A stretch of 64,000 bases of DNA from Marsupella aquatica. Taxonomy: Eukaryota > Plantae > Marchantiophyta. Of this stretch, positions 10,515 to 64,000 are shown in pieces (position 1 is the first letter of the stretch; every line of letters begins with the position of its first letter). The stretch covers positions 16,786,216-16,850,215 of the forward strand of contig OZ316894.1 of assembly GCA_973895155.1 (NCBI GenBank). Reading direction: 5' to 3'. The translations under genes were made by a program, and so were the position numbers. The notes beneath the pieces were generated by a model, which ran no database searches, had not been told where the DNA came from, and worked only from the letters and a program-made list of their open reading frames with translations.

Positions 10515-13500
10515 CTAGCCTCTCCGTGAGATACTCTGTTGTCTTCTTACTTTAGAACTGAGCTCCAATACAATGTGATAATCAGAAGGGCGTACAGTGT
10601 TTTTGAAACAGCGGAAGAGAAATTCTGGTAGTAAAGCTGCTACAACCACAAGTAGCTGGGTAAGCCAATAGCTTGGAGACAGCCCTACTGCCTCTATGAG
10701 TTCTTTGTAGGCTGTTGTTGCAAATGAGACTGGCAGGGCCCCATAAATTAGCAAAAACACGTACCAGAGGGCGATGCTGCCCCAGATAGTGACATGATGG
10801 ATCCAAGTGAAGTATCTAATGGCAATGGTGAGCTGAACATTAGGGACCAGGACCAAACATGAGAAAAGAAGGGCACCAAATTCTTGAGTAGATGCCGTCT
10901 CACCACCTTTGCGGAATGGAGCCACCCAGTACAAGGCAGCAGTGAAGAAGAAAATGAGGAGTCCCGTGTACAGGGAGTTAAGGAGCCATATTGCTACCAG
11001 GTACTTGTTGAAAAACTCCTTCCTTTGGCCAGCTCTGTAAAGCTGAGGATACTTCACACACTCTGCTGCAGAGACATCTTGGTCGATAACGCCAACTACA
11101 CAGATGGGTATGGCAGTGAAGAGTGTATTGTAGAATGATGCATACCAGTCATTGTAAAGTGGCTGACCTGAGAAGAAAGTAAATGCATTGCAGCAGAAAG
11201 CGATCCATCCAATAAGGCTGACCTTGTAGAAAAAGTACAATATCTGCAATGCACAAACAAGTTTCATGAGTATGGTACAATTTCTGGAGGATTCAATTGA
11301 ATTCCTATTACAGCCAACGAATAGAGGAAGGTGTCAGCAGATGTTACATCTTAGCCAAACGACGCACACATCTCTTACTACAAACGACCTCGGCATACAT
11401 AACAAAAGTACTCACCATCAGTGAGATGCGACGGTAGGACCAATGACCATGCACGAGGAGCAGGCGTTCCAAAAACCTAAATTGTGCAATCGCATAATCA
11501 CCTGCCATAGCCGCCTGGAGTGCAAAACGAGAAACATAAGATAAATCAAATATTCCACGTCCTACGCCATCGGTCACACAACAGGGAGCATTCGTAGTGA
11601 AGTAGACAAATGAACCAGTTTCTGGGTCTCACAATAAAAGGGGCACAAATGTACATCAAACCAACGTGATCTTTTCAACTACAGGAATGTCCGTGAGAAC
11701 AGATCAAGATGTCCTTCGAAACTGGAAACTTCTTTTGCAATAACGAACACTTACCTGAGCACCTTCCACACCCGTGATACCAACACCCACATTTGCAGCT
11801 TGGATCATGCCCACATCATTGGCACCGTCCCCTATGGCCAGACAAAGCCTGTTCTCTCCCATTCCCTTCCTTACCAACCTTGTAACCTGGGCCTTTTGCC
11901 GGGGTGACACTCGACAGCACAGAATAGAAGTACACTGTTTACAAACCCGAATAAACTCGTCCTGGAGATTATCGTCTTCGAGTACAAAGGCAAGTGAGTA
12001 ACCATCAATCACCAATGCAAATGAGGCCTCTTGATCTCTGGGAGCTGAAGGACTTATTTTTCTGCTTGACAGATTTTGACTGCCAAAGCCATCGAGTTGA
12101 GTATTTTGCTGACGTTTTGCATCCTTTAAAAAGGCTGCCTCCCCATTTTCCTGCCTAGTCATAGATGTGTATTCTTGCAGTTCCTGCTCGGGTTCCCTGT
12201 GACTGGGCCTTCGACTTAATGCACCGAACAGGTTACCAGAGAAGCTCTGAGAGGAATTGTAACCCATAGCACCGTTCTCCTCTGCAGAATCAGGAAATTT
12301 GTCCCCACCCACTTCGTTTCGTATTCTCCCAATCTCCATATTGCCGTCTGACAATTGTTCAGCCACAATATCTTTCAACTCCTGCAATCCAATGAGAAAT
12401 GGTCATATCATTGGAAATTAATTTCTATTAATTCTGACTGACAGATTACTCTGAGATCTACCAGAGCTGTCAAGCAAGGCTCAAAAGAAACGTCAGAAAA
12501 GACAATATGGGTACTACAATACCTACGACTTCCACCTATCCACTATGTCTTCGTTCAAGTTTCCGGACAAAGACTTCATTATGAGGAACACATTTCATCG
12601 TCCCCTGTAATCCAGCAAATGGCTCTGAAGTACCTTGTTTACATCCTCAGAGGACAGATTCTCTCTCTCAGCTCTCTCCTCCACTTCCCGGGCCTCAGAA
12701 CCTTCCAAAGTGATGATAATCTTCTGCATGCCTTTTCGAAGAAGGCTGGCGATGAAAAACCCACAACCACATGTGTTTGTGAGTTACGGATGAATGCAGT
12801 CAAGATTAACAAGAAGGAAATCAGGCAAAAATGGCCGAACATTGATCTATAAGAGGCTGCCGGTGATTCAGTGTCGTCATTGATAAATTAAGATAGTAAA
12901 CTATGATTTGGTTCAGCTTTACCTGCAGGCATAACCAATGTTGATAGCAGTTTCCACCTTATCCCCAGTAAGTACCCAGATGTTAATACCAGCCTGAGCA
13001 AGGTGGTCAATAGTATCAGGAACCCCATCTTGCAACTTATCCTCCACTCCAGTTCCTCCTACAATCAGAAGATTCCTTTCAATTTGATCTGCAACTTCCT
13101 CAATTCTTTGTTCTCTCTCTCGACCAATGACACTCCGGGCTTTTACGTATTCAGCTTGCCATTTTTGATACTCTGCTGCATCTAGCTCACGATAGGCCAC
13201 CACAAGTGTCCTCAACCCCACCTCTGCGAATTGCCTCAATTGGTTCATCGTTGATCTCAAATATCTTTGGTTTCCAGGGTCCACTCGCTGAGCCATGACA
13301 GAATCAGCACCCTTGGATAGCAACATTATTCGTCCATCTGGATAGCGGACAATGACAGACATCCGTTTCCGTGCGCTACTGAACTCCAAAACATTCAAAA
13401 GCTCATAACTTTGGTCTCTGTATTCGACCCCTTGTCCAACCGACTCCCTGACGTACACTGTTGACGGCGTTCTCTTATAGAAACAGAAGCCAAACTGCTT

Positions 13501-16156
13501 AGCAGCCACAACAAGCGCTGCCTCATCTGGAGATTCAGCTCGGTAATCCATTGACTGAGGGTCATCAACTTTGCCCTCTGGGATAGCTGTATGGCAAAGA
13601 GCAAGAATCTGGAAAAACAATCTAATCATGTCCGCATTTTCTTCCTTTGTCCAGTTACCCCCTAGAAGTCGAGAGTCAGAAAAATTAAATCCTTTAACTT
13701 CGTAAGGATTAACTCCGGCATCATCCCCGTTCTCTCCTCCGGGACCACCGTCCGACTGTGCACCGTTTCCAAGAGAAAGCCCAAGACGCCGGGCAGCCCT
13801 TTCTACCTCTGTTGTACCCTTCCCATATGGAACTCCTGCTATAGAGCATCGGAAAAAGTCCATTTGGTTGCATGTCAGAGTTCCAGTCTTATCAGATAAG
13901 ATGGTGTCCACTTGCCCCAGCTCCTCGTTCAACCCTGTTGACTTGACCTTTGCCGGTGTGTCAGTACTGGCTTCGTACATTCCCAAATCCTGCATCATGT
14001 AAATTCCTTGGATAACCCGCACAATTTCAAGAGAAACATAAAGTGCGATGGGAATAAGGTAGCCATACAGGATCAGCCCACTCACAGCTGATACAATACC
14101 AGCAACTGCAGCTTTGTTGGGATTGTAATAAGGATCGCTGACATAGGGCACAAGATACCATAGGTCTGGTCCTTCGTGTCTGGTCTTATAACCAAGCACT
14201 GCTCCAGTTGCAACACTCATTACGAGAAGAAGTCCAAACATTGCGTAAATGACTCCGTCCAATGACCTGTCAATGCGGCTCCGTTTGGATGGAGGGGTTG
14301 TGGAATTCTGCATGACCTTCGTATCATGCCCCGTGTACATCACTGCTCCCCATATGCTTCCAGTGTTTTGGAGGCTCGAGTCCCGCAGAAGAAGTTGCGC
14401 AGGACCAAGAGAAAATGATTGCCCATCTTGCATATCTATTTGCCCAGTGAAAGTGTAGAGTGATGCATTGGGTACTTCACATGTCACATCTGCTCGGAAA
14501 CCTTTTAAAGAGGTTTCATTTAAATCCCATGTACACTCCAGAGCTTGTCGAACCTGCCTATCATTACGATACAACAGTTAGAAAGACCCCAACGCGTCTA
14601 TACTAGAAAAACCGTTTTTAAAATCATACAACTCCAACAAGAGTCGTGGAAGAGATAACACAGAACAAAACGCTGGGCAAACTAAGGAAACAGGCCAGTC
14701 ACATAGTAACACGAGGATCGCATCTCGATAATCAAGTACACTGCGAAATAATAATTCTCTACGAGTCGTGTTACAAAATGTTGAATCACCTTCAAGTTTG
14801 TCTCCCCGTCAAGATTCTTAGTCTCCACATAGCAGACACCGTCAGGTCCACTAGAAGCGAGCAGAAGCAAATCTGCAGGAAAGTACTCTCCATCTGACAC
14901 TCGCACTAAATCACCAACATGTAAATCTTTCCACTGTAATGTCTCCAGCCTTTCCCCGTCCAGGAGGACTTGCACAGGAGTGGAGTTGACTTGCGCATCT
15001 CCTCGACCGCGACGGAGGTCTTCCCAAAGTTCACGACCAAGACCGAGAGCAAGGACAAAGCCGAGCGGAAGCACTACACTCACCCACGAGTACGGGCTAA
15101 ATGGCAATATCGACAATATTGCCATGGCTGTAAAGTACCAGTAGGCGGCCCTTCGATACTGTACAAATAGAGACAACGGCAAGAAACTGTACCAAGTGTA
15201 CTTCGTGGTGGAAGTCCTGTTTTTCTTGTACCTGCACGAAACGAACAGGGGAGCACATCTTAGGGAGAACAAATCTGTGTTAAACAGCGACAGTGTCTCG
15301 TGAATCAGCTCCTCGGTCACAGGATTGACGCCAGAGTCGTGCCTACCCAAGAAGACTTGTTGGTTCACGATGCCTTGTGGACAAAGAGAATCTTCCTACC
15401 GACATCCCGCAGCTTTCTAGTGTGGGACTCAACTCACTCTAGAAGGGGGAGAAGGAAAAGGAAAATCTGTTGGCTAGTGAAAGTTGGGATTCCAACATCC
15501 CACAGACGTAAAGTAGCGCAGGCCAACAGAGAGAGCCAGCAAAGCAGTCATCTCCGAGTTCAGCTGGTTGTGATAAACTTCGTAAGAAACTGATCTAATC
15601 GGTGAGCAGTCGGACCCCCGGTTTCACGATTTGTAGACACCGACATAACACTGTGCAACCCTTCAGGATGTGGGCTAGACGGAAGGAATCGACGAGACTC
15701 AGAGGATGCTACTGCAACTGAAGTAAGATGCCATGTGAATCAGAAGGGACATTAGCTCTGCAAATGGCCAGCTTAGATGAGTTCTCCGTAAGCTGTCGAT
15801 AGACTGAAATTCGGCAAGAAAAATAGATCGCAGAAGTCGTGATTGGATCAGCGCTTTGCCCGTCACAGGAGTTGGACCATAATGTACTCTCGTCCAGGAC
15901 AAGATACGTAGGGTTCAGACTCCGAAGAGTAGACAGATGTGGGGGCGAAAAGTTGTTAAATTGTAGATATTGACTACGACTCATCCTAAAACAGGATTGT
16001 GGAAGGAGATAATCACCGGTATAATTCATTGAGCGTGCGGTCATTGATGTGGATGGTGCGGGTTTCGCTGGAGCCGCCATCAGAAACATTCCCAGATGTG
16101 CGTGCACGCCATCCACCACGCCATAGCTTTGTCGCTCGGCGCCTTAAGTTGTCCAT
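10515..16156 (-). CDS. ALA: P4-type ATPase (aminophospholipid flippase, ALA family), 7 coding exons
   Basis: Exons 16156-16017 ([17 protein letters not shown], not in the ORF track), 15231-14790 ([15 protein letters not shown]), 14553-12923 ([53 protein letters not shown]), 12745-12634, 12381-11755 ([18 protein letters not shown]), 11514-11416 ([15 protein letters not shown]), 11243-10515 (TM5-10). Splice phases are compatible. Confidence 0.96.
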
Positions 16157-25300: not shown

Positions 25301-28300
25301 TTAAGACAGCTTTAGCAAATTTTGAGAAAGTGTTGGAGGTACATCCTGATAATTGTGAAACAATCAAGGTAGGTCTCTGGGCTACGAGCATCTTTCTTGT
25401 TACCGAGCGGGAAGCTCATGGGTTTGAAAGGTTCAGAATTACATTTTGGCAGTATCTGCGGATTCTCGTTTGATAAAATGCCAATCTCGAAAAGACCGAT
25501 GTGTTCTTGTTTTGCTCCCAGGCAATGGGACAGATATATCTCCAGCAGGGCCATATGGACAAAGCTTTGGACAATTTCAAGAAGGCAACGAAGCTGAATC
25601 CTCGGGATGTTGATGTGAGTTCCTCGCCAATATGGAATCATTCACCCGGCTAGTAGCATTCAAAATAAGTAGCAGACTTTCTGGCATTCTTGTCAAAGTA
25701 TGTTATGAGCTGTTTGTTAGCATTATGCTGTTCTGATTTACTTCTTGATTATCTGATTGACACAGGCTTGGGTGGAACTGGGTGAACTACTCGTCTCTTC
25801 CGATTTTGGAGCAGCTCTGGATTCTTTCAAAACTGTGAGAAACTATTCTTGAAATGATTTGACAAGATTAGCGTGCAGTGACCTTTTGGTTGGGATAGAT
25901 TTTGGAGTCCTCACTGTGGATCCTGCAAAAGGCTTCAGACTGGAAAGAGCCATTTTTCTGGGAAAGTTGTGCCAGTGCAGAGGCAGTTGCTTACTGGTAA
26001 TTGGACTCTGCAGTTAGTCTGAAGTGCGAGCTGAGGTTTTCTGTGGTGGGAGTTACTGTCTTGAGTTTAGTAAAGAGAATTAGATTAAAAAATATTCCCT
26101 TTCCAAATAGACTCGGTCGACAATAATTTGATTTTATGACGAAGGGTCTAGCTGTATCGCCTGAGCCCCTCTCTTTTCGAATATAATAGTCGGATTCGTT
26201 TCCTCGTAAAGGACGCTCATATCTACTCAAAGTTACTGAATTTGGACTGTCGATGTTGGCAGGGACTTGGTCTTATTAGAAAAAATGAGGATCCCATACC
26301 TATTGGACTCCTAAACAATATCGGCGTTCTTCACTTCGAGCGCAATGAGCTTGAGGTATGCACCGCTCGCAGCTTAAGCAGATACCTCCAACGGGAGGCC
26401 GATGTTCTTTGTGAAGAGAAGAGAACTCTCATGTGTTGTTCTCTTGACTGGCCTGAGCTTGGTGCCCACGAAAAATATATACGAATACTTAGACGATGGG
26501 GGAGTAGCTTCTCTGTTAACATATGGTTGTTCATGTGCTGTATCTTCTGAAGGCCGCAATGGAAGCTTATCGTGAGGCGTTGGGGGAGGGTATTTGGGTT
26601 GAGTTTAGTGAAGGGAGAATACCTTCAACTGAGGGCGATGCTGGACTACCAGTAGATCTTAGTGATGAAAATAAAAAGCTTAAAGAATTGGAAGAGGACG
26701 GAGTGCTATTGGATGTACCTGCAGAGAAAGTGACGGTTCTTTTCAATCTGGCAAGACTTCATGAGCAACTCCATGAAACACACAAGGCGACTATACTCTA
26801 TCAACTGCTTTTGTATAAGGTGCGTGCCGCGAAGGGAAGTATGTCTTCTGTCCTCGGGTCTTCATCAGGATGCATGCAGCAAACCACGTAACCAAGGATT
26901 GCATATGCACTGCTGCTTTACGGATTATTGGGTCAGAAATTCTCTTTCCAAGTAAAGCGAAGTCTTGGAGGAACCCAGTTCTCCTTTGATATACTGGTCC
27001 AGATTGGAAGATGACTGGGGTTTTTCAATTCGGAATTTAAAACATTTCTTATTGCAGAAAGCTGTTGAAGTAAGAACTGCTGTTTTGGAGTTAACATTTT
27101 GTCTATCTCCTGGAAATCAGCATCCTCAGTATATAGATGCATTTATGCGACTGGCAGCTATGGCTCAGGCGAGGAATAGTACAGCCGCAAGCCTGAAGCT
27201 GGTGGGTGCCATTGTGTAAAGCAATTTGCTTTGAGTTACTCTTGATAGTTCAGGCTAATGGTTGGAGCCTGTGAAAAATAGAAAGCTTTGGTTCATGTTT
27301 CAACTTTTTCTATCGTGGGTGTAAACATTTCACCTTCTTCAGGTCTTCAATAAGGTCTTTTCCGTTCGACAGAACAAGAAGTAGGATTTCAGGTTATGGA
27401 ATAAGAACTAGAATTTATAATTCTAAAGTATTTTGCTCTTTTTGGCAGGTTTCTAAAGTGCTGAAAGTAATAGGAAATTGTGCGGATGCTTTATCAGTAA
27501 GAGGTAGCATGGAACTCAAAGCTGATGATTGGCTGAAAGCAAAGGAAACCTACAAAAGCATACAAGTTGCTGACGGGAAAGACAGTTACTCAACTTTGGC
27601 CCTGGTAAAATTCTTGGAAGCAATAAGGAAATATTGTTCTTACTGTCTTGCAAACAATCGCTGCACAATCTACGACATGATGGATGTTGCATGGTAGCAC
27701 TGCTTATGAATGTTTTTTGTCGAAAGTGATCGACTCATTCGAAGTCCTGTTTGATGGTGACGACTAAGTCAGTGGGAAACGAAAATAAAGTTTTGCGTAA
27801 GATGGGACGGCAGGAAGTTTTGTGTGCACAACAAACCGATTTGTTGATGTGGAAATTAAATCCCTAAGATTACATGATGTGAACGGATTTCAACTTTGAA
27901 GCGGCCACTGACCTGCCTTTTCCTCCAACAGGGCAATTGGAATTATTATGCTGCTGTACGGGGAGAGAGAAAGGATCCCAAACTGGAAGCTACTCATTTG
28001 GAAAAAGCTAAAGAACTCTATCAGAAGGTTCTTAAAGACTTAATTTCTTTGGCAATGTTTCCCTTCAATATGATTTTTCGATTTTTCATTTATAAGCACT
28101 TCTCTGAGGCTGCTTACTATTCTGATTAGAGTGTCCTAGATTAGCCAAGGTCCTCGTGTGGACTGAGTTTGTTTAGCTCTATTTAATATAAAATGTGATG
28201 TGCTTGAGATGACAGGTTTTAGTGCAGAAGCCAAACAATATGTTCGCCGCGAATGGGATAGGCATTGTTCTAGCTGAGAAAGGCATTTTTGATGTCTCGA

Positions 28301-30940
28301 AGGAGGTTTTCACCCAGGTAACTGAAAACTTATGGCCTAGCTTGGGTTCAAAGATCTCTTCAGAAATGGCTGGAGGGTATCTACGTTTGTTTCCATTTCA
28401 TAGTAATTTTCCAAATTGAATCCACCGGGATTTCAAAATTCCTCTCACGTTTATAGACTTATTGGTTGTTAGAAAACCTAGACACGGATGATTACCAAAA
28501 AGGAGAAACTGTTTGCACGCAGGTACAAGAAGCAGCTGCAGGTAACGTTACCGTGGAGATGCCTGACGTTTGGATCAACCTCGCACATGTTTATTTGGCA
28601 CAAGGGCAATTTTCTCTAGCAATAAAAATGGTAAGTTTCTCAACAGGCTTGCGTGCTGTTGAAGGTCGTCGGCGCTTGAATCCTGTAGAATTCTAGTAGG
28701 ATCGATGCCTGCCATGAGACACAAGTTTCATTGAACAGACGTTCATTGATTTTCGTCTGAGTTTTTGTCGAGTTCACCCCTTTCACATTCAATCGTTTCC
28801 ATTGCATCCTTGGTCGGGGTTGGTAATGCGTGGCTGGGATATCAAGGCTTCCTCCTATTTTCAATCCTATCCCCTAACAATAGCCACTGGTTTTGCAGTA
28901 TCAAAATTGTTTGAAGAGATTTTATCATAACACGGACAGTCAAGTCCTGCTCTATCTGGCCCGAACGCACTATGAGGCAGAACAGTGGCAAGATTGCAAG
29001 CGGGTGCTTCTTCGAGCCATTCACTTGGCACCATCCAATTATACTCTGCGATTTGATGTGGCCATTGCGATGCAAAAGTTCTCAACAGCTACTCTCCAGA
29101 AAGTGAAGCGGACAGCTGAAGAGGTGGGTTATGGGAGCCTCCAATTACTTCATATCTGTTAATGTGGAAGGTTGTGATATGTGTGCAAGGATTTATTATT
29201 TCCTTTGGTAAGCAACTGTGGGTTTGATGGGCTTGATGACTGTGCTGGTGTCAAAACGGTGGTGTCTCACGTGGCATATGCGGTACTAGATTTATTCACA
29301 AATGACCTCTTGGCTGGATCCAGGTGCGACAGTCAGTTGCAGAGCTGAAGAACGCACTTAGACTATTCAATCAGCTATCAAGTGTCGGTGTCAATCACGG
29401 GCATGGATTTGATGAAAAGAAGATCGAAATGCATGTAGAATATTGCAAACACCTGCTGGATGCTGCAAAAGTACATTTGGAAGCAGCAGAGCGTGAAGAG
29501 CAACAAAATCGCCAAAAATTGGAAGTTGCGCGTCAGCTTGTCATGGCAGAAGAATCACGTCGCAAGGCAGAGGAGGACCAGAAAGCTCAGGTCAGGATCT
29601 TGGGGCCACAGCTTTTTCACATGAAAGTATTTTTTCTTTGCGTTCAGGATTTTGCCTTCAATCACTGGTGGCAGTTGAATAGATTCAGTGAGGCACAATC
29701 ATGCTGGGCGTCTAGTGTTTTAAAAATAGTTGGATGACTTTTTGATGGTGCTTAGTCCTGGCTACATCTATATTGGATTCTTCTAGCACGAAGGTCGTAC
29801 ATTCATTTGTATAGCTGAACTTTCCCTGGACTTAGGTGGAGAGAAAATTGAAAGAGGAGGAAGCAAGGAAGGTGCTCAGAGAGGAAGAGAAGCTGAAGCA
29901 TCTGATGGTACGTTCTCGTGTGTACAAAAGTTCATTCTCAATAAATGGGAGAAGGGATTATGATGCCACATTCCTTCCGTTCATTTCCTTACTTTTTCTC
30001 TCGTCAGGTTTTGACTTTGGACCCTCAATTTTATTAGTGGGTGGCTATCCTTCCTACTTTGCAACAATCAAGTTCTGTCTCCAGGCACATTAGAATGTTG
30101 GATCATCTTAGTATTCCTCCATATCAGTTGACTTTTGGCTGTTTGAGCTTGAATGATCAATTTGGTTCGACCCTTGGCGATCTTAAATGTCGCGCATTCA
30201 CATCCCTTTCGTGGACTGTCTCCAGGCAAACTGGAATGTGAAGTCGTCTAGGCATGATGATGATGTAGAGGACGGAGCATCTGAGAAGAAAGAGAAGAAG
30301 AAAAGGAAGAAGAAAGAAAAGCGAGTCCGGTCGAAATCTAGATCTAGATCCCCATCTGAGCCAGAGTATGAAGTGGATGAGAGGTACAGAACTGCGTCAC
30401 CAGAAGAGGACACACAAGATGCTCTAGCTGCAGCTGGACTGCTCGACGAATCAGACGACGAGGAGGCGGTAAGACTTGAATCCGATCTACTTCTCTAGTC
30501 TTGTGATCAAAGGTCTCAATCGAGAGAAAGCAAGCAGGGCATGTATGTGTAGAAAATGGCTGACTGACAGATCACCTGCTGTCGAGTGGATTACAAGAAA
30601 TAACTTATGTATTAGCTTATGTAGAAGATTTGAGAGACTGAAATGTGCGTTCCACAGTTGAAGCGTCAGTCTGATATTTCCCACATGATGATAATGTGTC
30701 CAGGTGAAAGAAGCACCACGGGCAAAGAAAGGAAGGTTAAGACGGGCACTTTCCGAGTCAGATGACGAAGATGGCTTGCACGGGCAAAGATTTGAGGGGA
30801 ACAATGCTTTGGCTGATAGTGATGCTGATATGAAAGGAGCAAAAACTCTGGAGGACTCTGATGCAGATGAACAAGTAGTTGAAGCTGGTGCTAGAAGGCG
30901 TCCCAAGCAGTCACGACTGGCAGACAGTGACTCTGACTGA
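22369..30940 (+). CDS. CTR9: PAF1 complex TPR subunit CTR9 (VIP6/ELF8 homolog), many exons
   Basis: N-terminus MACVYIPVQNSSEEVRVQLDQLPRDATDILDILKAEQAPL (ATG 22369) closely resembles plant VIP6. Later TPR exons include EIDEYYSDVKYDRIAILNALGAYY, LNHLANHFFFTGQH, GNWNYYAAVR, EMPDVWINLAHVY, LYLARTHYEAEQWQDCK and HGFDEKKIEMHVEYCKHLL. The tail is acidic/Lys-rich with a stop at 30940. Confidence 0.96.
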
Positions 30941-51018: not shown

Positions 51019-52118
51019 GCCTTAATCCTATGCATAGTTGACTGAGAGTGCAGCGAGTATGTTGAGGTTGCCTACAAACAAAGAAGATGTGGACCACCCT
51101 TTTCTTAGGCTTTTCTCCAGTTTTCCCTTAGCAATTTTTCATGACGCATCTATTTGCTTTCTCCCATTGCGACCGAAGACGTATGTCAGATTCGGATTGC
51201 ATGCAAGACCATGGTAGTGCCTATTATTCCATCGATTGACGGAACCTCTTTTAAAAAGAAATTCGGGTCTGCTGCCAACCCCCTGGGCCCAAGCTCAAAG
51301 TCAGATCCGGTTCATATGGGTCCGGTTCATATGGACAGGGAAATTACGTTCCTTTCTGGGATGGTCAAAAAAAGTACAGGCTCTAAGTCTGAGAAGGTGG
51401 GCTTCCACGACACTGAATTCTCAAGAATATATGGAAGCCGTCACTGAGTGGGCATCCATCCCTTTGTAAGTTCATCGAACCTGAAGTATATCTATGCCTA
51501 GACCTTGACTTTCAACGTTTGATAATGCTCCTCCAGCTAGTGCTCCTGCAGTGCCGCACTACCTTAGCTTTCAATCATCGACATTGGAGGTCTCACAACT
51601 ATTAAACGATCCTGCTCAGCATCATCGTCATCGTGCTTATGAGCTCCCTTTTCATTGTGTATGTCATGCAACAGTGTGATATTGAACTCTCTTGAAAACC
51701 TTTGGTGTGACTCCACTGCATGTTGATCTGAATTCTTTCGCTGAATGGCTGAGCATTTCCCGATGTCGAGTCGGGAGGAGTGGTGAGGAGAGCTTTTTGT
51801 CGGTAAGTGGTTAGTCGGTTCTCTCAATTCGAAAGAAGTCCTGGATCGTGAGGAGGCAGCCTAGTCCGGATTTTGAAGGCATAGAACTCCGAGGAAGAAC
51901 TGATTCGGGTAAAGCCATTCCATGAAGCAATTGTACTTAATATTTTCTGATGTCCATGGTAGTAGCGAGATCGATTTCCAAATGGTATGGCTATATGGAT
52001 ACTGTGGGCAACGTAGACATACGTACAGTAGCAAGCGACTTAGTTCATCTGCGAAGTTCACCTAGCTTTGCTAATATTTTGGTAATCTTTGCCATTGCGT
52101 GCCTGGTCGTACAGATTC

Positions 52119-55100
52119 ATGGAGGCGGTGAAGGAAGTCGTTACTGTCTGCGGTTCAATTCTCGACATTATGTCAAACATTGAGAATGTCAAAGAAGACT
52201 GGTTCACTGTGTCAGTGGAGTATCAAAGTGAAGCGACGATACTCCGCTCAAAGCTTGCGTACTATGAGGAGCAAGTCCGCATCCATCAGCAACCTGTGGA
52301 GAGCACTATGATGAAGACATTAAAGAAAGCCGAATTGGTACTGAAGAGAGCGGAAGCAAGATTGAACAGGTTGGAGAAAGGCGTAAACGTCAACCAATGC
52401 TGTTCCCAATTCTGGTGGTTATATGCAAAAGTGACCTTCACACTTTTCCCGGAAAAGTTAGAAAAGACATTTCAGACGGTGATCCAAGAGCTTGAGAGTG
52501 TCTCAAACAACATCGAGGAGGAAGTGAAATTCTCTGGTCTTATGCTAGAAGCAAGCAAGATTCGAGCCATGCCTACAGTTATCCACAATAATGATAACAA
52601 GTATGTTCCAATAGAAAAATCACAGTCTGCGGTTATCAAAGCAATTGAAGATACTCAGAGCGGGACTCGCATGATATTATTGTATGGTGGTGTAGGGAAA
52701 GGCAAGTCCACCCTAGCCAGATATATCTGTGAGCGCTATGGGCAATTTGGAGAAAAAAGCATCGTCTTTGATCATGTGATTTTTGTGTCGTGTGGTAATT
52801 GTTCCATATCTGATCTTGCCACCAAGCAGTACGAAATTTTGGAGCACCTTTCTCCCACTAGTTTAACTGAGGAAAGTAATTCAAAATCTGGGGAGAATGT
52901 TGGCTCAAAATCTCGAATCGCCAAAGCTCTACATAATGTTTTTTCTGGTAAAAAGATTTTGATGATCTTAGATGGCGTTTCGGATAAACAGTTTCTGTAT
53001 GGAATGTGGAAGGCTGCCAGAGACGGCAAAGATGATAAACTTCTCATCACTTCCCAAAGGTCTAATCTATGTGAAGACATTAAAGATGCCACTGTGCTTA
53101 TTACCATGGAAGATGCTTCCAAAGAGGAAGCGGGAAAGATCCTTGCCTCCCTTGTGGGGCTGGAGAGTAGCAAATTTCCTGAGAATATAAAGGTGAGTTT
53201 CCCTCAAACCAAATCTTAATGTATCACATATTGCAAAGTATATGTCTTGCTCTTTTCTAGTTGTCTCCTCAACGACTTTTTCTTTGGCTCAATGCAGGAA
53301 TATGCAGATAAGATGATAGAAGCAACCGGTGGAAATCCCTTAGCTTTGGCCTGTTTGGCAAGTACATTTTCTTACAAGGCAGATAAAAGGAACAAGAGGG
53401 CTTGGCGAGATGCTTGGATGGAATTATCTGAGTTACTAGACTCTAAAGCTACGAGTATTGTGTTAGACGATGAGAGTGCTACTCCTAGAAGCTTGTGGGG
53501 GGCCATGACACTTTGTCTAGAATCTCTGGAAACCAGGGATGCCAAACGGATACTCTTCTTGATGTATGCATGTAAAGCAGAATCTGTTCCCGAACATGTC
53601 CTTAGACTTTTTTGTGCTGGTATGAAGATGTCAAGCTCTTCATTCACACGATCGACAGATGAATTATGGATGAGAGAACTATTGAAGCGTAAAGCTGATC
53701 CATTGGCATCCAAGATGAATTTGGACCAGGAAGAAACTGAGGACGACTCTCCAGCGTGGTCCCTACAGTCTCTGGTGAAGCTTTATATGGAACGGCATGC
53801 TGTGGGTAAACAGGACGTCAGGGATATGATTGGGGCATTGCTTGGTGATGAAAGTTTTTCACCTGAGTCAATCAGTAGATGCAAGTTGCAGGATTATGAA
53901 TCGGAAATAGTGGGGAATGAAATAGAGATTGTGGAGAGTGACGCAATGAGAATGAGAATCACTCTTTGTGCTCTATACTTTGATGGCTGTCACACTGATC
54001 CAGTTGTGACTCGTGCCATGACTAAGGCTTCCAAAATAGCCAATCTTGTGGATTCTGATGACACCATGACGGATCTAAGGAGGAAAGCTATCGAGCCGTT
54101 GATATGGCTCTTGGACAAGCCTGAAGAGGAGGAGCAATGGACGGAAATGGACAAAGGCCGTGTGAGAAAGGTATTTCCCTTGTCACCTTTGAAGATTAAT
54201 TTGCTTCCCTCGCTGCACGTACCTTAGTTATCTTGAATTCAAATAGAAAATCATCCGAATAATTCTAATACTTCCTCACTCACAAAATCTAGCAGCTCAC
54301 ATGTTTGATATGGAACCGAATGCGTGACAGTGAGTCAGAGTTCGCCATTCTTCAACTATTCTTCGTAAGTAAGTGGAAAACAAACAAATTCAGCTTTCAA
54401 AACGAAATTAAGGCGTTTGATTTCGTTTTTAGCATATGGACGTGTCGTTCATACAAATAATGTTAGCCAGACGAACAAGCTATATGCGAACTGTAAGTAC
54501 GAGGCTTAATAGAAGCATGATTTTTAAGAGTCCTTGGAAAGCCATGTCTCTTCGATCGGTACGTTTTCTGCCTTGATCATGTTTGTTCTGATCCATAATT
54601 ATCACTAAATTTCAATTTGTGGGCATTGTGATTCCCTTTCTTTACAGGTCCTTCTCAACTTCATATGCAACCGGCGGCTAGATAACGACAACATCACTTA
54701 CCTGTTGAAGTTGGCTGCTTGTCCTTCCGCACAGTTGGCCACTCTCTCGGCTATTAGTCATATTTTTTCCATCGAAGAGACGCCTCTGCTCAATGAACAT
54801 ACAATCACCTTTTTGCAATCTGTACTTGACCTTTTGACTTTGACGAAGGCTTTGCAGAGTACTGTGCGACAGGCGGCCTCTAAAACATTGCGTGATGTTT
54901 GTTGGAAGGCTGCATATGACAAATCAGCAATCCTTGTTGGAAACTTTCCGGGTGTTTTTGACGTGCTAGTACACTCACTCGCCATACCCCATTCGAAGTC
55001 GGATGCATTTGCAGAAAATGCAGCTTCAGCTTTGACTGGCTTAGCATTCTCGAACGAATATGAGATCGTACGAGGAATTGTGAACAACGAGGGCCTACTG

Positions 55101-57666
55101 GCCAGTCTTGTGAATTGCTTGTGTCAGCAATCCAAGCCTACCTTACAAAAGGCTGCAGCACACGCTTTGTCAAATCTTACCGGTTCAACAAATAATGCTC
55201 TGAAGTTGAGAGTCGCCAATGCGGAGGGGGCTCTGCTTGGCCTGGTGAATTGCTTGTCACAGAATGGCCACCGTGAATTACAACAACGAGCAGCAGGGGC
55301 GTTGGTAAATATTACCAGTTCTACGGATAATGCTCTGAAGTTGAGAGTTGCCAATGTGGATGGGGCTCTGCTTGGCCTGGTGAATTGTTTGTCACAGAAT
55401 GACCATTGTGAATTACAAGAACTAGCAGCAGGGGTGTTGGCAAATCTTGCCGGTTCGACGGACGATGCTCTGAAGTTGAGAGTCGCCAATGAGTATGGGG
55501 CTCTGGTTGGCCTGGTGAATTGCTTGTCACAGAATGACCACCTTGCTGTACAACGGGTAGCAGCAGGGGCGTTGGCAAACCTTGCCGGTTCGACGGATAA
55601 TGCTCTAAAGTTGAGAGTCGCCAATGAGGAGGGGGCTCTGGTTGGCCTGGTGAATTGCTTATTACAAAATGACCACCGCAATTTACAAAAACAAGCAGCA
55701 GGGGCGTTGGCAAATCTTACTGGTTCTACAGATAATGCTCTGAACTTGAAAGTTGCCAATGTGGAGGGGGCTCTAGTTGGCCTGGTGAATTGTTTCTCAC
55801 AGAATGACCACAGTGATCTCCAACAAGAAGCAGCATGGGCATTGGCAAATCTTGCAAGTTCAATTGACAATGGTCTGAAGTCGAGAGTCGCCAATGCAGA
55901 GGGGGCTCTGGCTTGCCTAGTGAATTGCTTGTCACAGAATGACCACCTTGATTTACAACAACAAGCAGCATGGGCATTGGCAAATCTTGCCGGTTCGTCA
56001 GATAATGCTCTCCAGTTGATAGTTGCCAGTACAGAGGGGGCTTTGGTTGGCTTGGTGAATTGCTTATCACAAAATGCCCACCGCGGATTACAACAACGAG
56101 CTGCAACGGTGTTGGCAAATCTTGCCGGTTCGATGGATAATGCTGTGAAGTTGAGAGTTGCCAGTGCGGAAGGGGCTCTGGTTGGCTTGGTGAATTGCTT
56201 GTCCCAGCATGAGCACCGTGACTTACAACAGCAAGCAGCACAGGCATTGGTAAGTCTTGCCGGTTCGACGGATAATGCTCTAAAGTGGAGAGTTGCCAAT
56301 GAGGAGGGGGCTCTGGTTGGCTTGGTGAATTGTTTGTCACAGAATGACCATTGTGAATTACAACAACTAGCAGCAGGGGTGTTGACAAATCTTGCCGATT
56401 CGACAGACAATGCTCTTCAGTTGAGAGTCGCAAATGAGGACGGGGCTTTGGTTGGCCTGGTGAAGTGCTTGTCACAGAATGACCACCGTGATTTACAAAA
56501 CCAAGCAGCAGGGGCGTTGGCAAATCTTACCGGTTCGACGGATAGTACTTTGCAGTTGAGAGTTGCCAAGGAGGAGGGGGCTCTGGTTGGCCTGGTGAAT
56601 TGCCTATCACAGAATGACCATCATGATTTACAAAAACGAGCAGCAGGGGCGTTGGCAAATCTTGCCAGTTCGACGGATAGTGCTCTGCAGTTGAGAGTCG
56701 CCAAGGAGAAGGGGGCTCTGGTTGGCCTGGTGAATTGCTTGTCACAAAATGACCACCATGATTTACAAAGAGAGGCAGCAAGAATGACATCAAATCTAGC
56801 TCGAGCACCAGGGGCAATTGCGATCCTCAGAGAAACGGAAGGTCTATTGGAGGGGCTTACAAGCTTGGTGGGAGATGACATGAGTCCGGATACTCGATAT
56901 GCAGGAGTGGAAGGATTGCTTAAGGTCGACCCGACACTAGCGAAGCAACTAGGCTTGCTCTCCGTACAACTTGATTCCTCTTTGTTAAGGTACCTAAATT
57001 GATCACTGGTATCGATCCTACGCAACTCTTTTTGTGTAATGCTAAATGTGGATAGAAAGATGCGAAGAAGTTGTTCAACTAACAAAATGGACAGTATCAA
57101 AAGAAAATACTTCTGCAGGGCCTAATGAAGCTTAGGAAAATGGATGTGCAGACGCCAAGATTCAATTTGACGTCAAGCTTAGTCACATTGCATTGAATTC
57201 ACTAACATAGCTTTTCTTAAATGTGGCAGTAGCTAAAGTTGCAAAGAAAAGGTGAACAGGTCACTCGATGTGATTTATTTGCAGCATTACTCACGCTCAT
57301 TGTGATGGCAGTTCTAGAATTTTTGTAAAAGCTGAGCTTGGAGATTTTCAAGGGGCACTGGACGATGCGAACGCAGCATTCAACATGCCGGATGCTCCGA
57401 GGGCGTTTGTCTTGCAGGAGCGGGGCGTCTTGAAGCAAAAAATGGGAAATCTAGGGGGTGCCCTGGCAGATTTGGACGAAGGTTTAAATTTAAAGACAAA
57501 CGACTATGAAATGCTGAAGCACCGTGGCTATGTCAAATTCTTGTTAGATGACATGGAAGGAGCTCGCGCAGATGCAGAATGGGCTCTATCACTCGACTCC
57601 TTAAGGGATGATTCAAGTGGCTACTTGGGAGGAACCTGCGCAGAATACTTGGGCTATAGACTGTGA
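52119..57666 (+). CDS. NLR-like STAND protein: N-terminal 4-helix (MLKL/RPW8-like) - NB-ARC - ARM repeat array - TPR, ~1547 aa
   Basis: Exons 52119-53192, 53298-54170, 54648-56989 and 57312-57666 have GT-AG ends and matching phases (0, 0, 2) and total 4644 nt. Motifs: Walker A GGVGKGKST, Walker B ILMILDGVSD, RNBS-B LLITSQ, GLPL-like GGNPLAL, 45-aa ARM repeats, and TPRs RIFVKAELGDFQGALDDANAA, ERGVLKQKMGNLGGALADLD and HRGYVKFLLDDMEGARAD. Confidence 0.85.
55092..56802 (+). repeat. Coding tandem array of 135-bp (45-aa) armadillo repeats, ~12.7 units, within a single exon
   Basis: Consensus GALVGLVNCLSQNDHxxLQxxAAxALANLAGSTDNALKLRVANxE. Units start at 55092, 55227 and every 135 bp up to 56712, with no indels. 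Confidence 0.95.
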
Positions 57667-58857: not shown

Positions 58858-59040
58858 CAAACTTTTCAATCAAATTATTGCAACAAATATATTGAGCCAC
58901 TGAAATCGACACCAAATTGAACCTTTTTTATCAAAAAGCTGCAAGAAAATTTTTGAGCCACTGACATCGATACAAAATTTCAACTTTTGATCAAAAAGTT
59001 GCAAGAACTATTTTGATCCACCGAAATCGATGCCAAGTTT
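58858..59040. repeat. ~60-bp tandem repeat, 3 copies
   Basis: actttt..atcaaa....tgcaa.aa....ttga.ccac.ga.atcga...caa.tt occurs three times. Confidence 0.75.
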
Positions 59041-59486: not shown

Positions 59487-61426
59487 TCAAAGCGAAACCC
59501 CTACAGGTGGCTTCTCTTCTACCTGTGACTTGGTTACGGTTGCCTTCGGTGCTTCTGCGGATTGAGAAACCTTCGATTCCTCTATTGTGTCACTAGTTTG
59601 TGTCAAAGGCAGCCCCGCAACCTCCCGAAGAGGCTTCCACCTGTAAGATCGCCTGCGCGATTCAAAGAACAGAACATCAGGGGACAGATGAGAAGTAGTA
59701 AACATCGTCATGGGAGGCCAGACTGACAATACTTGCGGTCTTTGAAAGGAGTAGAGACGCAAGTTTTGAAAAGTAAGATGCCATACAGAACTATTGTCAA
59801 AAGGAGACCAGGAGATGCGCAAAGCTTACCACATTAAAACATAAAACCTACAATGACGATATTTGACGATTTATAATAGTAATAAATGAGGCACTCCGAA
59901 CCCAACTAAATGAGAATTTCAAAGAATGTGCAGAATCAAGAATGCCTCTGCTGCATCGATTGACTCAAAAAATTGGCTACCTATGTGTACATTTTGCGAC
60001 CTGACTCCAATGGCATAGACAGACCCCAATTCAACCATTTCAGTTACCGAGCCCCTACCAGGTGCCACACTCAGCAATAACTTTGACTTTCTTCCGCAAG
60101 GCTGGCAACAGAGCCAAATACTGTAATTCCGTCTTTGACAGTACCTGTTACATGCATGAAAACTTCTTAAAATTTAAAAACCTCGCCATGCCAGCGATAC
60201 TCACATCAGTGAACTCAAGTTCTGAATCACTTCACCAAATTCTTGCTTCTAAAAATGAGAACGAGGACATACAATGAGTACCTTTGCTTCAATGACCCAC
60301 AGAACAAGTCCCTTGGAATCTTCAGGCAGAGCAGAGAGCCTGTGATCCAACTCTGGCGGGTAATAAAAGCATTCTATTGCCTGTTTACCTAAATGGGCCT
60401 GCATATCCAGCTACCAGTGTCAGTACTGCGTTTCTTGTTTATAATTGAATGACTGAACAAATGTTTTCCAGGTCAAGCCCCTTGTCTTAATAGTGTAGAG
60501 GTACTTGACCTCCCAACCCCTCGCTTTATTGGAGCACTTCAACCTTTTGGTAAGCAGAAACTTAGTTTTCAAGGATATGGACACAAGGTGCACTCGCTCT
60601 AGACCCACGATCATTGGGGAAGGAGAAAAGGATACCAACCACAAACTGAAATTAGAGAGACAAGAACTAATGAATCTAATTAGTCATGGTTGGACGTGGA
60701 GCTTGACTCGGCTCACGGATTGATGCATGTAGAACAAACTTCAACCAAACCCGTGCATGTTACTTGCTCACATACAGTGATGGCAGATTCAGCTCGGAAT
60801 CCCCTCTCAGAATAAATACAGAGCGATGACTGCTACAACCCATAATTGCAAGAATTGCAAAATGACTTCAGGCACACCTCCACCATATGGAAAAGACTGT
60901 GTCACGTCGTGTAGAAAGAGCCAGAGCAGCTAGAGCAGCTAGAGCAGATAGAGAGAGAACGTACCGGTCGCACGCCATGGATTTTGGTGAGATAAGCCTC
61001 TGGGTCACCCAAGCCACGAGCCGTTATATTCATAAAGTGATAACCCTCCGACTTCAGGCGATTAGCATACCGCCCCTCGTAACCTCCCTCGGCGGGAGCA
61101 TAGACTGCAATCGACCCGTAGTCTTCCACATCCTTATACCACTGGTCCAGGTCGAATCCCAACAAGTCTCCTCCCCAGAAATCTGCGAGGCCAGCAGAAA
61201 CCACAGTAGTGCTCCCCTGCCTCTCAGCTCTGAGATTAGACGACGACGGGCAGCTACTCACACTACTTACGCTTCTTCCCCGCCAGAGCACAGGGGAGGA
61301 GAGCAGCCGGGTCGGAGGCAGAGACGGTGCTGCTGCATTGGTGCTTTGACATCTAGGAGAGGAATTGAAGGTGGCTGTGGACGGAGTGTAGCAACATCGA
61401 GCAGGGTAGACACTAATCACATTCAT
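59487..61426 (-). CDS. ndhN: Plastid NDH complex subunit N (nuclear-encoded, with transit peptide), 4 exons
   Basis: Exons 61426-60965 (Ser-rich transit; AVYAPAEGGYEGRYANRL..TARGLGDPEAYLTKIHGVRP), 60398-60282 (AHLGKQ..PPELDHRL..KGLVLWVIEAK), 60144-60059 (VLSKTELQYLALLP..IAECG) and 59652-59487 (RSYRWKPL). These are diagnostic NdhN motifs. Confidence 0.95.
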
Positions 61427-63112
61427 CGTTGGTACGTGGTCAGGCTAAATGTGCGCAAAGACTTCAATGGACTTACCACAGAGAGCAGAGAGCTGGTAGA
61501 GACCGATCATATCCACACTCTGAGGATGGCAATTGCAGTGACAGTGTACAACTGAGGAAACTTCGAAAGGCTTGAAGCACGAATGACCTCGAGGTCTTGT
61601 GTGTACGAGAAGAACATGGCCAAAATTCTGATGTGGGGGTGTGAGAGCGGAAGCTGGGCTACGATATCTTTTCGACTCTTGGTCGAAATGGGAGTCGAAA
61701 TGGGAGTCGAATTTGTGTCCACTATTTGAACCTCAGTGTTGTTACCGAGCGCTTGGCCATGGATCAGCAGGGCCATTATCAGCCAATGATCACAAAGCAA
61801 ACATGAACTACAGCGGGACTACAGCACAATCATGGGGCCCGTTTATCTGCTGTAAAGTTGTCCATTTGTCCAAACCGAAAAGTAATCGATAGGGCCTCTC
61901 AAAGCTTAAAATTTGATGGACCTTAAGGGCTAGGTTCCATGAAGTAGGGATTTGTACGGATGGGGAGTAAGGGTGCACGCAGGGCCCACCACCACAAATT
62001 TGGGGGCAGGGGTATTCTCGGGCCCATGCACTCCCTGCGGAGCAATCCGCGCCCCACTCTCCGGTACCAATTCTCACAAATGAAACCGGCTGTTCACAAA
62101 CGATGTTGCTGTGAAGCTCCAAAAACCTGCCCACAAACAAAGCTCACAAGAAGTCTCCAAGCTTTGACTAGATCGATATCTGGGAAGGCTGTGAACTATG
62201 GATCGGATCATAGCTCGGAGCATTGGGGCATTGCGAGCGGAGAATTAGGAATCTTGATGCTTGACATTTGCAATGGGAATACACCACAGGCAGGCAGCAG
62301 ACGAGTGGGCCGGCATTAGAATTTGAGTGTTTGACAGATTCAAAGAGCTATGGAATGGGAGTTGAGCTAAAAGACTTGTGTGACTCGCGCTGTTCTCCTC
62401 ATTGTACGCACCTCATTATCTGTGACTCCGTTCGAATGAAATTGTCCATTCTGCCCTTGTGAGTCCTGACTTGTGGAAGCTTTGACCTGAGTGAGTGACT
62501 GAGTGACTGAGTTGTGAAGCTTCGAGTGTGTGAGAGAGCGCCAGGACAAGGCTCTGGGATTTCAGGAACGGGTCATGTGAATCGTCCACTTCAGGTAGTA
62601 ATCTGCTAGAGATGTCCAAAGGCGGCCCACTTTGTCCGTGACCTCCGAATTCCACCTCAAATGATCGCACTACCATTAGGTAAGCACAAGGAGGAGCGAC
62701 AATACTTCCTTTTGAAGCACAGACTACTATAGGATTCAATCCGTGTATCTTACTGCACGAAGATACTTCACAGATCCATGTCACATCTCTTCATCACACG
62801 AGGGCTCGCTTGGGTCCAGATTGACAGGAAACAAGATTTTTGGCAGCAACGCTTGCAATTTTGAACTGCTCAAATCGAAGTATTCAGAGCAGGAGATTGG
62901 AAATCTATTTCTTCTGCACCCAAAGCAGAGGCAACATGGGACTCCAGCCACTGAAAAATCAAGTCGTTTGCCACACTCGTGATCGAGTGCATGGCATATG
63001 CCATCAGTAGTTCCTGCGACACATAATCTATAAGGCAAAGATGCCCAGTCGCCGCACAGTAGGGCAACGCATTTGCCTTCAACAACACGGATTCTAAGTC
63101 GCACTCGAATGA

Positions 63113-63211: not shown

Positions 63212-63389
63212 AGCATCACTTTCTCAGTTTGCTCCTGTTGTCGAGTGTTCAAAGATTAGAGTAGCTGCATCAGAGAAAGGAAGTTCTCTTACCAGATGTG
63301 GCCATAGCTTTGAGAATTGAGAACTTTCATCATGGAAGGAGATCCCATGGACATAGATTTCAATGTAACTCCTTCATCTCAAGAGCCAA

Positions 63390-64000
63390 ATGTTCACTCA
63401 GTTAATAGTTGATGTCCATAGGGTTCGTCAATTTCCTCACAGAGACATTAACATAAATTTGCTAGTGAGGGTAGTAGCTTCTTTGATGGCAGCGCTTGCC
63501 TCTGTCACACAGTCATTGTTGCCTATGACTGATGCCACAAATCTAGTGCTCCATCTCTCAAATCTAAGTAGAGCTCATGTGGGTAGAGATGCACTTGTTT
63601 GTCACCTGATTCCAACATTTTTGCACCTTGTTGGAATTGCTTATGTGCGTCCAAGGGAAATTATCGATCAGTGGTACATAAAACCACGAACCAGGCATCG
63701 TTTGATGCTTTGGATGGACGACACACCACTTGAGGACCCACAGTGCTTCAGAGAATTTTTTCAAATTGGTCCTGAGCTCTTTTTTTATGTATGCGAGCTA
63801 GTTCATGATGACATGCTTACAGATCCTCCAGAGTCTCTATGGATATTGCCAAACCGCAAGCTTATTGTGATCAGGCAAGTGGCTCTTGCCTTGAGACGGT
63901 TGGCAGTGGGAGATACCTTCCTAACTCTAGGAGAACTATTTGGTGTTTCGAAAAGCACAGCAATTAAGGTCACATGGAAGTTCATCTGTGCACTTCGAAT
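63390..64000 (+). mobile_element. PIF/Harbinger transposase-like (HARBI1/ALP1-like) ORF, truncated by the window edge
   Basis: The frame is open from ATG 63390 to the end and is absent from the ORF track: WYIKPR..FREFFQIGPELFFYVCELV..RQVALALRRLAVGDTFLTLGELFGVSKSTAIKVTWKFICAL, the helix-turn-helix region typical of Harbinger transposases. The DDE domain lies outside the window. Confidence 0.85.

Follow-up and report, generated by a model that had tools for sequence, protein, structure and literature searches.

Several described systems stand close to the gene considered here, which lies in a 64,000-nucleotide stretch of DNA from the liverwort Marsupella aquatica (assembly GCA_973895155.1, contig OZ316894.1, positions 16,786,216 to 16,850,215 of the forward strand; hereafter the window, with positions counted from its first letter) and encodes an NB-ARC domain, a solenoid of armadillo (ARM) repeats and a TPR domain. 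In the accessible part of the report by Dong et al. (2025, PMC12513842), Mapoly0095s0062 is named NHAT and is placed among the bryophyte R genes that induce cell death when overexpressed in N. benthamiana. The available excerpts on rice RLS1 (PMC10030324, PMC12512272) describe a protein of the CC-NB-ARM group with 1,040 amino acids (aa) and three ARM motifs. High internal repeat conservation is reported, in the available portions of PMC4986451 and PMC12222747, for the fungal HNWD proteins HET-E/HET-D and for fungal NOD-like receptors (NLRs) with ANK or TPR repeats, and the accessible text of Dyrka et al. puts the highly conserved share of plant ANK/TPR/WD repeats at 0.4%. According to the part of PMC6838082 that is available, designed armadillo repeat proteins (dArmRP) use an Asn ladder and bind a single dipeptide with each repeat, and ARM pockets are common to neighbouring repeats in the accessible text of PMC11228518. 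The literature outside subscription journals yielded no description of a plant NB-ARC protein whose ARM repeats are homogenised or hypervariable; the regime of homogenised repeats with changing pockets is described mainly for fungal receptors.

The array of the NB-ARC-ARM-TPR gene in the window is likely a ligand-sensing solenoid, with a predicted groove that selection is likely diversifying. It forms part of exon 3 in an intact gene of four exons (Table 1), which is open over 1,547 codons, carries neither stops nor indels, and has GT-AG borders at all introns. The domain order is an N-terminal helical bundle, NB-ARC, ARM solenoid and TPR, a layout like that of plant immune receptors. The NB-ARC domain is matched in Pfam at E 2.7e-12 and in structure by NRC2 (Z 17.4, root-mean-square deviation (rmsd) 2.4, 184 aligned), while the TPR domain is matched by TPR_9 at E 5.7e-7, below the family cut-off. 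The N-terminal bundle had no match in the Pfam scan; its residues 7-134 align with the Rx coiled coil (Rx-CC; Z 10.2, rmsd 2.6, 107 aligned), a Z that is common for helical bundles, and atlas leads to MLKL_N/RPW8 scored 0.87-0.89, under the threshold of 0.9. The Pfam scan of the gene returned no LRR family, ARM and TPR occurring instead, so that it is not a canonical NB-LRR gene. A canonical Walker B motif has two acidic residues; the second is Gly in the window gene, compared with Asp in 9 of 13 relatives scanned, and in what we take by eye to be the MHD-like motif the His of Marchantia and Riccia members is also replaced. As far as the available descriptions of RLS1 go, the likeness lies in a CC-like bundle, an NB-ARC domain, ARM repeats replacing the LRR and a link to cell death, whereas RLS1 differs in its size and small number of ARM motifs, with neither a TPR domain nor a homogenised array in those descriptions. 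No RLS1-type proteins were among the matches of the homology search, which had a limited reach.

The best relatives of the window gene are five Calypogeia fissa proteins (P0005-P0009), with NB-ARC identity of up to 70%, and further family members with matching architecture occur in Calypogeia, Riccia and Marchantia, one of them being MpNBS-LRR15/MARPO_0095s0062, that is, Mapoly0095s0062. The window gene and Mapoly0095s0062 have homologous N-terminal bundles and NB-ARC domains (BLAST E 2e-15), the same NB-ARC, ARM and TPR order and a common C-terminal motif, and they fall in one clade; in a quick NB-ARC tree of 19 regions, whose outgroup consists of two angiosperm NLRs only, the 17 liverwort rows form one starred clade with an SH-like approximate likelihood ratio test (SH-aLRT) support of 100. 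Judged from its predicted domain order and its clade with Mapoly0095s0062, the window gene is a member of the NHAT class. In the same tree it clusters with P0005-P0009; a 1:1 orthogroup from Marchantia, Riccia and Calypogeia stands separately. The clade of the window gene is, as predicted from the protein sequences, expanded, with swapped N-terminal domains and a varying number of repeats (9-16 units in the paralogs). The N-terminus is alpha/beta-hydrolase-like in P0006 and P0169 (with a weak PGAP1 match in P0169) and a helical bundle in P0005, and this difference among close paralogs suggests domain swapping. In addition, P0010, P0011, P0013 and P0019 are long ARM proteins with the same repeat type and no NB-ARC match, and P0011 and P0019 end in the family TPR and C-terminal motif.

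Tandem Repeats Finder (TRF) delimits a 135-bp array at 55167-56768 with 11.9 copies, 83% matches, zero indels and a score of 2084. Counted in register from 55224, with units beginning at 55224+135k, the array holds 11 full units of 45 codons and a partial twelfth (about half a unit). An earlier sequence-only reading had quoted residue strings from these 135-bp units, and every string is present in the sequence (column n here is its position n-1). Its description of the 45-aa framework as almost invariant is overstated, because the full units are 77-92% identical in DNA and 64-84% (mean 73%) in protein; columns 1, 28, 32, 34, 36, 39, 44 and 45 vary as well. An assembly artefact or simple repeat was ruled out by the longest exact repeat of only 41 bp, the lack of indels, and exact contigs in other sequencing runs (four runs had contigs at the locus, all short, and one is possibly from the source sample). 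The window array suggests a 7-unit block duplication, and no higher-order period was seen at lags 1-4. Among the paralogs, P0008 has repeat units with a period of three (identity 0.80 at lag 3 vs 0.54 at lags 1-2), and P0007 and P0009 have a period of two.

In the structure model each unit has three helices, helix 3 spanning columns 17-31, and the top Foldseek matches include designed ARM proteins, Vac8, beta-catenin and importin alpha; the three-helix repeat and the helix-3 Asn ladder of ARM peptide binders (importin alpha, dArmRP) are both present in the window array. In the alignment to a designed binder, column 25 corresponds to the pocket Trp and column 29 to the ladder Asn. The accessible part of PMC12202725 gives seven pocket residues for PDB 5AEI, which correspond to five in-repeat positions with the spacing 0, +3, +4, +7, +10, and this spacing fits columns 18, 21, 22, 25 and 28 under an inferred numbering offset of 7. 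The sequence-only reading had placed the variable positions on the binding-groove helix, which was borne out by the model and the alignment, since the variable residues share a face of ARM helix 3 and occupy the peptide-pocket positions of designed armadillo binders. It had also named positions 16-17, of which 17 (column 18) varies in the paralogs too, whereas 16 (column 17) is hypervariable in the window array but belongs to the lower-ranked columns of the paralogs, with a mean diversity of 0.20. Of the 11 units, 10 have Asn at column 29, column 25 is Trp in only 2 of 11 and mostly Gly, and the combination of pocket residues differs in all 11. Amino-acid change is in excess at the five pocket columns; for a groove set of seven columns (these five with 32 and 33), which was picked after the window residues had been inspected, the concentration goes beyond chance at a permutation p = 2.8e-4. 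The dArmRP are among the best PDB sequence and fold matches, and, as far as the available sources show, the pocket positions that engineers randomise in them match the variable columns of the array; they differ in being artificial, with 42-aa repeats and known ligands, whereas the window gene has 45-aa repeats and mostly Gly at the Trp position. PUF repeats place their reading residues at i, i+1 and i+4. A PUF-like reading of RNA, prompted by the same spacing of columns 21, 22 and 25, was dropped because repeat length, fold matches and the Asn ladder fit ARM.

The ratio of nonsynonymous to synonymous change (dN/dS) was estimated on the 11 full units for two sets of pocket codons, both picked independently of the window data, either by paralog ranking or from the literature. 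In fixed-site tests, dN/dS reached 2.3-2.9 at the paralog-ranked columns 18, 21, 22 and 25 (p 1e-4 to 2e-3 in 4/4 tree and frequency settings) and the literature set gave 2.12 (p 0.002), compared with 0.51 elsewhere. The result for the literature set was stable in 11/11 leave-one-out runs and without units 9-11, and dN/dS was 1.7 (p 0.03) when codon 22 was removed. The outward columns of helix 2, whose exposure was inferred from the helix pattern, have a dN/dS of 0.36 and differ from the pocket at p 4e-6, and synonymous diversity at the pocket codons is not raised (0.21 vs 0.26). Neutral simulations reached the observed statistic in 0/185, 2/202 and 2/178 runs. The codon comparisons indicate that the pocket codons are likely under diversifying selection. 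CpG hypermutation as a cause was ruled out, CpG transitions making up 2 of the 23 variant alleles at columns 17, 18, 21, 22 and 25.

Paralog arrays were compared with 48 of 69 repeats from five Calypogeia paralogs, terminal and divergent repeats being dropped by hand and alternating units split to give nine repeat classes. In 7 of these classes the groove set exceeded the remaining columns in variability (p<0.05), the most variable paralog columns were 22, 18, 25, 21, 39, 32 and 28, and the window agreed with the paralogs at a Spearman coefficient of 0.54 (p 1e-4). The window units are 73% alike among themselves, compared with 43-54% to paralog units, and the nearest neighbour lies in the same gene for 11/11. 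On these sequence identities, the framework is homogenised within the window gene after its split from the paralogs, by concerted evolution. High-internal-conservation (HiC) sensors of the HET-E type are defined by repeats that are 85% or more identical over 100 aa; the window gene falls short at 82%, whereas P0006 (94%), P0007 (97%) and P0008 (91%) lie above it.

The orthogroup of P0159, P0012, P0176 and P0177 (Marchantia, Riccia, Calypogeia) is conserved at 66-97% identity, with an importin-like Trp/Asn ladder. This ortholog has 12 divergent repeats, in which Trp or Arg at column 25 is unchanged in 12/12 and the repeat-specific residues at columns 22, 28 and 29 are largely unchanged across the three genera; for columns 22, 25, 28 and 29 together, 43/48 cells are identical, compared with 330/531 for the region. 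Between two Marchantia species, groove residues differ at 0/88 positions vs 9/312 of the others. In Mapoly0095s0062 the repeats are divergent (best self-identity 59% over 100 aa), the Trp/Asn groove is fixed and the orthologs are 1:1, whereas the window gene has homogenised repeats (82%) and a varied groove. The groove therefore appears to matter in the family, being fixed in one lineage and changing in the other, and the conserved orthogroup might act as a helper or guard a fixed ligand. A single family holds both an ancient ortholog whose groove is fixed and a young, expanding clade in which the repeats are homogenised and the pockets change.

By analogy with known receptors, the ARM array would probably serve as a sensor solenoid that binds a foreign or altered protein along its groove, with the NB-ARC domain acting as the switch and the N-terminal bundle signalling death, perhaps via a partner. 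One repeat would have been copied by tandem and block duplication, purifying selection would hold the framework (dN/dS about 0.35-0.5), and selection would alter the pocket residues (dN/dS about 2). As in STAND receptors, an extended segment of the foreign or altered protein may bind the groove across several repeats, partly via the Asn ladder, and the NB-ARC domain may switch on binding; the same receptors and the Marchantia report suggest that the N-terminal helical bundle would signal cell death, alone or via a partner. A partner-dependent sensor is plausible because Walker B is altered. The whole surface would determine specificity, as it does in HET-E or LRR sensors, and not a one-repeat cipher. 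The best reading is a sensor that evolves like fungal HET-E without being a member of that type. In the accessible descriptions, HET-E-type proteins combine a STAND NTPase with near-identical sensor repeats, in each of which about four binding-face codons are diversified. The window gene resembles them, its pocket codons being likely diversified, but has a plant NB-ARC and an ARM solenoid, not NACHT-WD40; the HET-E-type traits of repeat-number polymorphism and conversion are not among the features on which the likeness rests.

A number of results weigh against a sensor diversified by selection. In free site models, M1a vs M2a was not significant in 4/4 settings (p 0.45-0.97), M8a vs M8 gave p<0.05 in just 1/4, and about 60% of codons lay near a dN/dS of 1; with strong among-codon rate variation, 10/137 neutral runs reached the statistic (p up to 0.07), and only columns 22 and 21, out of 11 tested singly, had dN/dS >1 at p<0.05. 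Strong rate variation could mimic part of the pocket signal, and selection is likely but unproven because neutral runs of this kind reach the statistic. The groove excess is not significant in either P0007 class or in the close pair P0025/P0168 (5/84 vs 19/285, p 0.67), and independence among the paralogs is incomplete, since P0005/P0006 and P0007/P0009 are sister pairs and P0005 and P0006 have a common unit type. The PHI test for conversion on the window units was not significant (p 0.07-0.19), buried helix-3 columns of the conserved ortholog are as conserved as its pocket columns, the array model is a single-sequence prediction with pLDDT 67, and runs X1 and X3, from different studies, share an identical 281-bp piece that spans the pockets in units 6 and 7. 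The site models, the neutral runs with strong rate variation, the altered Walker B and the pair P0025/P0168 would also fit relaxed constraint, by which the groove of a redundant paralog would have drifted neutrally after a recent amplification while the fold was kept, so that exposed residues look hypervariable. This explanation is unlikely, as the outer face of helix 2 is held at 0.36 compared with 2.1 at the pocket, the 1,547 codons are free of indels and stops, the synonymous rate at pocket codons is ordinary, and matching columns vary in separately homogenised paralog arrays.

The sequence-only reading had combined a diversifiable sensor with a recognition code. Its sensor part agrees with the array behind the NB-ARC domain, the variation on the pocket face, the recurrence in paralogs and the fixed-site dN/dS above 1, which are HET-E-like; its code part, of the TALE/PPR kind, is not borne out. 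TALE and PPR arrays consist of near-identical repeats with few variable sites, which use a small reused set of code words for nucleic-acid bases. The window array instead varies at five sites without reuse, on a groove of the peptide type, and there is no small reused alphabet because 11/11 pocket combinations differ. It is quite unlikely that leafy liverworts hold a natural counterpart of a designed-armadillo library, in which each ARM repeat of NLR-type receptors would read about two residues of an extended foreign peptide and specificity would be rewritten as the 135-bp units are duplicated, shuffled and mutated; if true, plants would possess an immune receptor that reads peptides and is programmable. 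A true modular code, in which a repeat and its neighbour would read one dipeptide and the order of repeats would spell the target as in designed armadillo proteins, is distinctly improbable: the variable columns are the designed pocket positions, the Asn ladder is kept in 10 of 11 units, the 45-aa geometry is regular and some paralogs have two- and three-unit periods, but the 11 pockets share no code words, the pocket Trp is present in only two units, pockets overlap between repeats, the Asn ladder is mostly lost in P0007 and P0009, and there is no known ligand. Hardly credible is a non-immune scaffold or self-recognition protein, in which each repeat would fit a different host partner and groove differences would have been fixed long ago, since the window gene stands outside the conserved orthogroup, in an expanded clade with swapped N-termini and varying repeat number, even though the conserved ortholog retains repeat-specific groove residues across liverwort classes and the 281-bp piece is identical in two runs.

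In the literature found, the NHAT class is named and has been through one overexpression test, but there is no account of its sensing; the window gene and its paralogs point to a surface, with five residues per repeat. A receptor of this kind is an obvious scaffold on which to test disease resistance made to order in plants, because ARM pockets have already been engineered to read chosen peptides.

Table 1. Features of the NB-ARC-ARM-TPR gene and its surroundings, in window positions.
Feature	Position	Strand	Basis
P-type ATPase	10515-15395	-	Cation_ATPase E 2e-14
100-codon open frame upstream of the gene	51145-51447		no Pfam match
Exon 1: N-terminal helical bundle (aa 1-~134) and first part of NB-ARC	52119..53192	+	Pfam, AlphaFold model
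P-loop (Walker A), intact	52686..52709	+	
Walker B, second acidic residue replaced by Gly	52959..52979	+	
Exon 2: remaining NB-ARC, predicted winged helix, linker	53298..54170	+	GT-AG introns, open frame, 64-70% identity to P0005
Exon 3: degenerate ARM units, homogenised array, capping unit	54648..56989	+	Pfam Arm E 1e-52
ARM unit 0, divergent first array unit	55089..55223	+	
11 full 45-codon ARM units; pocket columns 18, 21, 22, 25, 28 on helix 3 (columns 17-31)	55224..56708	+	
ARM unit 12, matches array to helix 3, then capping sequence	56709..56843	+	
Exon 4: TPR domain, family C-terminal motif, stop codon	57312..57666	+	in-frame splice, matches P0005
Short C-terminal motif after TPR, kept in most of the family	57570-57666		
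60-bp tandem repeat downstream of the gene	58859-59031		
NdhN gene, chloroplast-type	60902-61444	-	Pfam E 2e-25; confirms plant DNA
Possible DDE-transposase fragment	63369-63998	+	HTH_Tnp_4 E 0.001, below cut-off

Some contigs of the sequencing runs differ from the window in their letters over the exons, which points to several close paralogs. In run X4, the summed contig depth over the array (55152-56924) is up to about 200 times that over the introns, which is not a copy number, hinting at many related repeat units in the run. Elsewhere in the window, exons at 26152-29737 (+) resemble what we take to be CTR9/VIP6, with no Pfam match for the two pieces scanned, and the P-type ATPase is presumably a lipid flippase.

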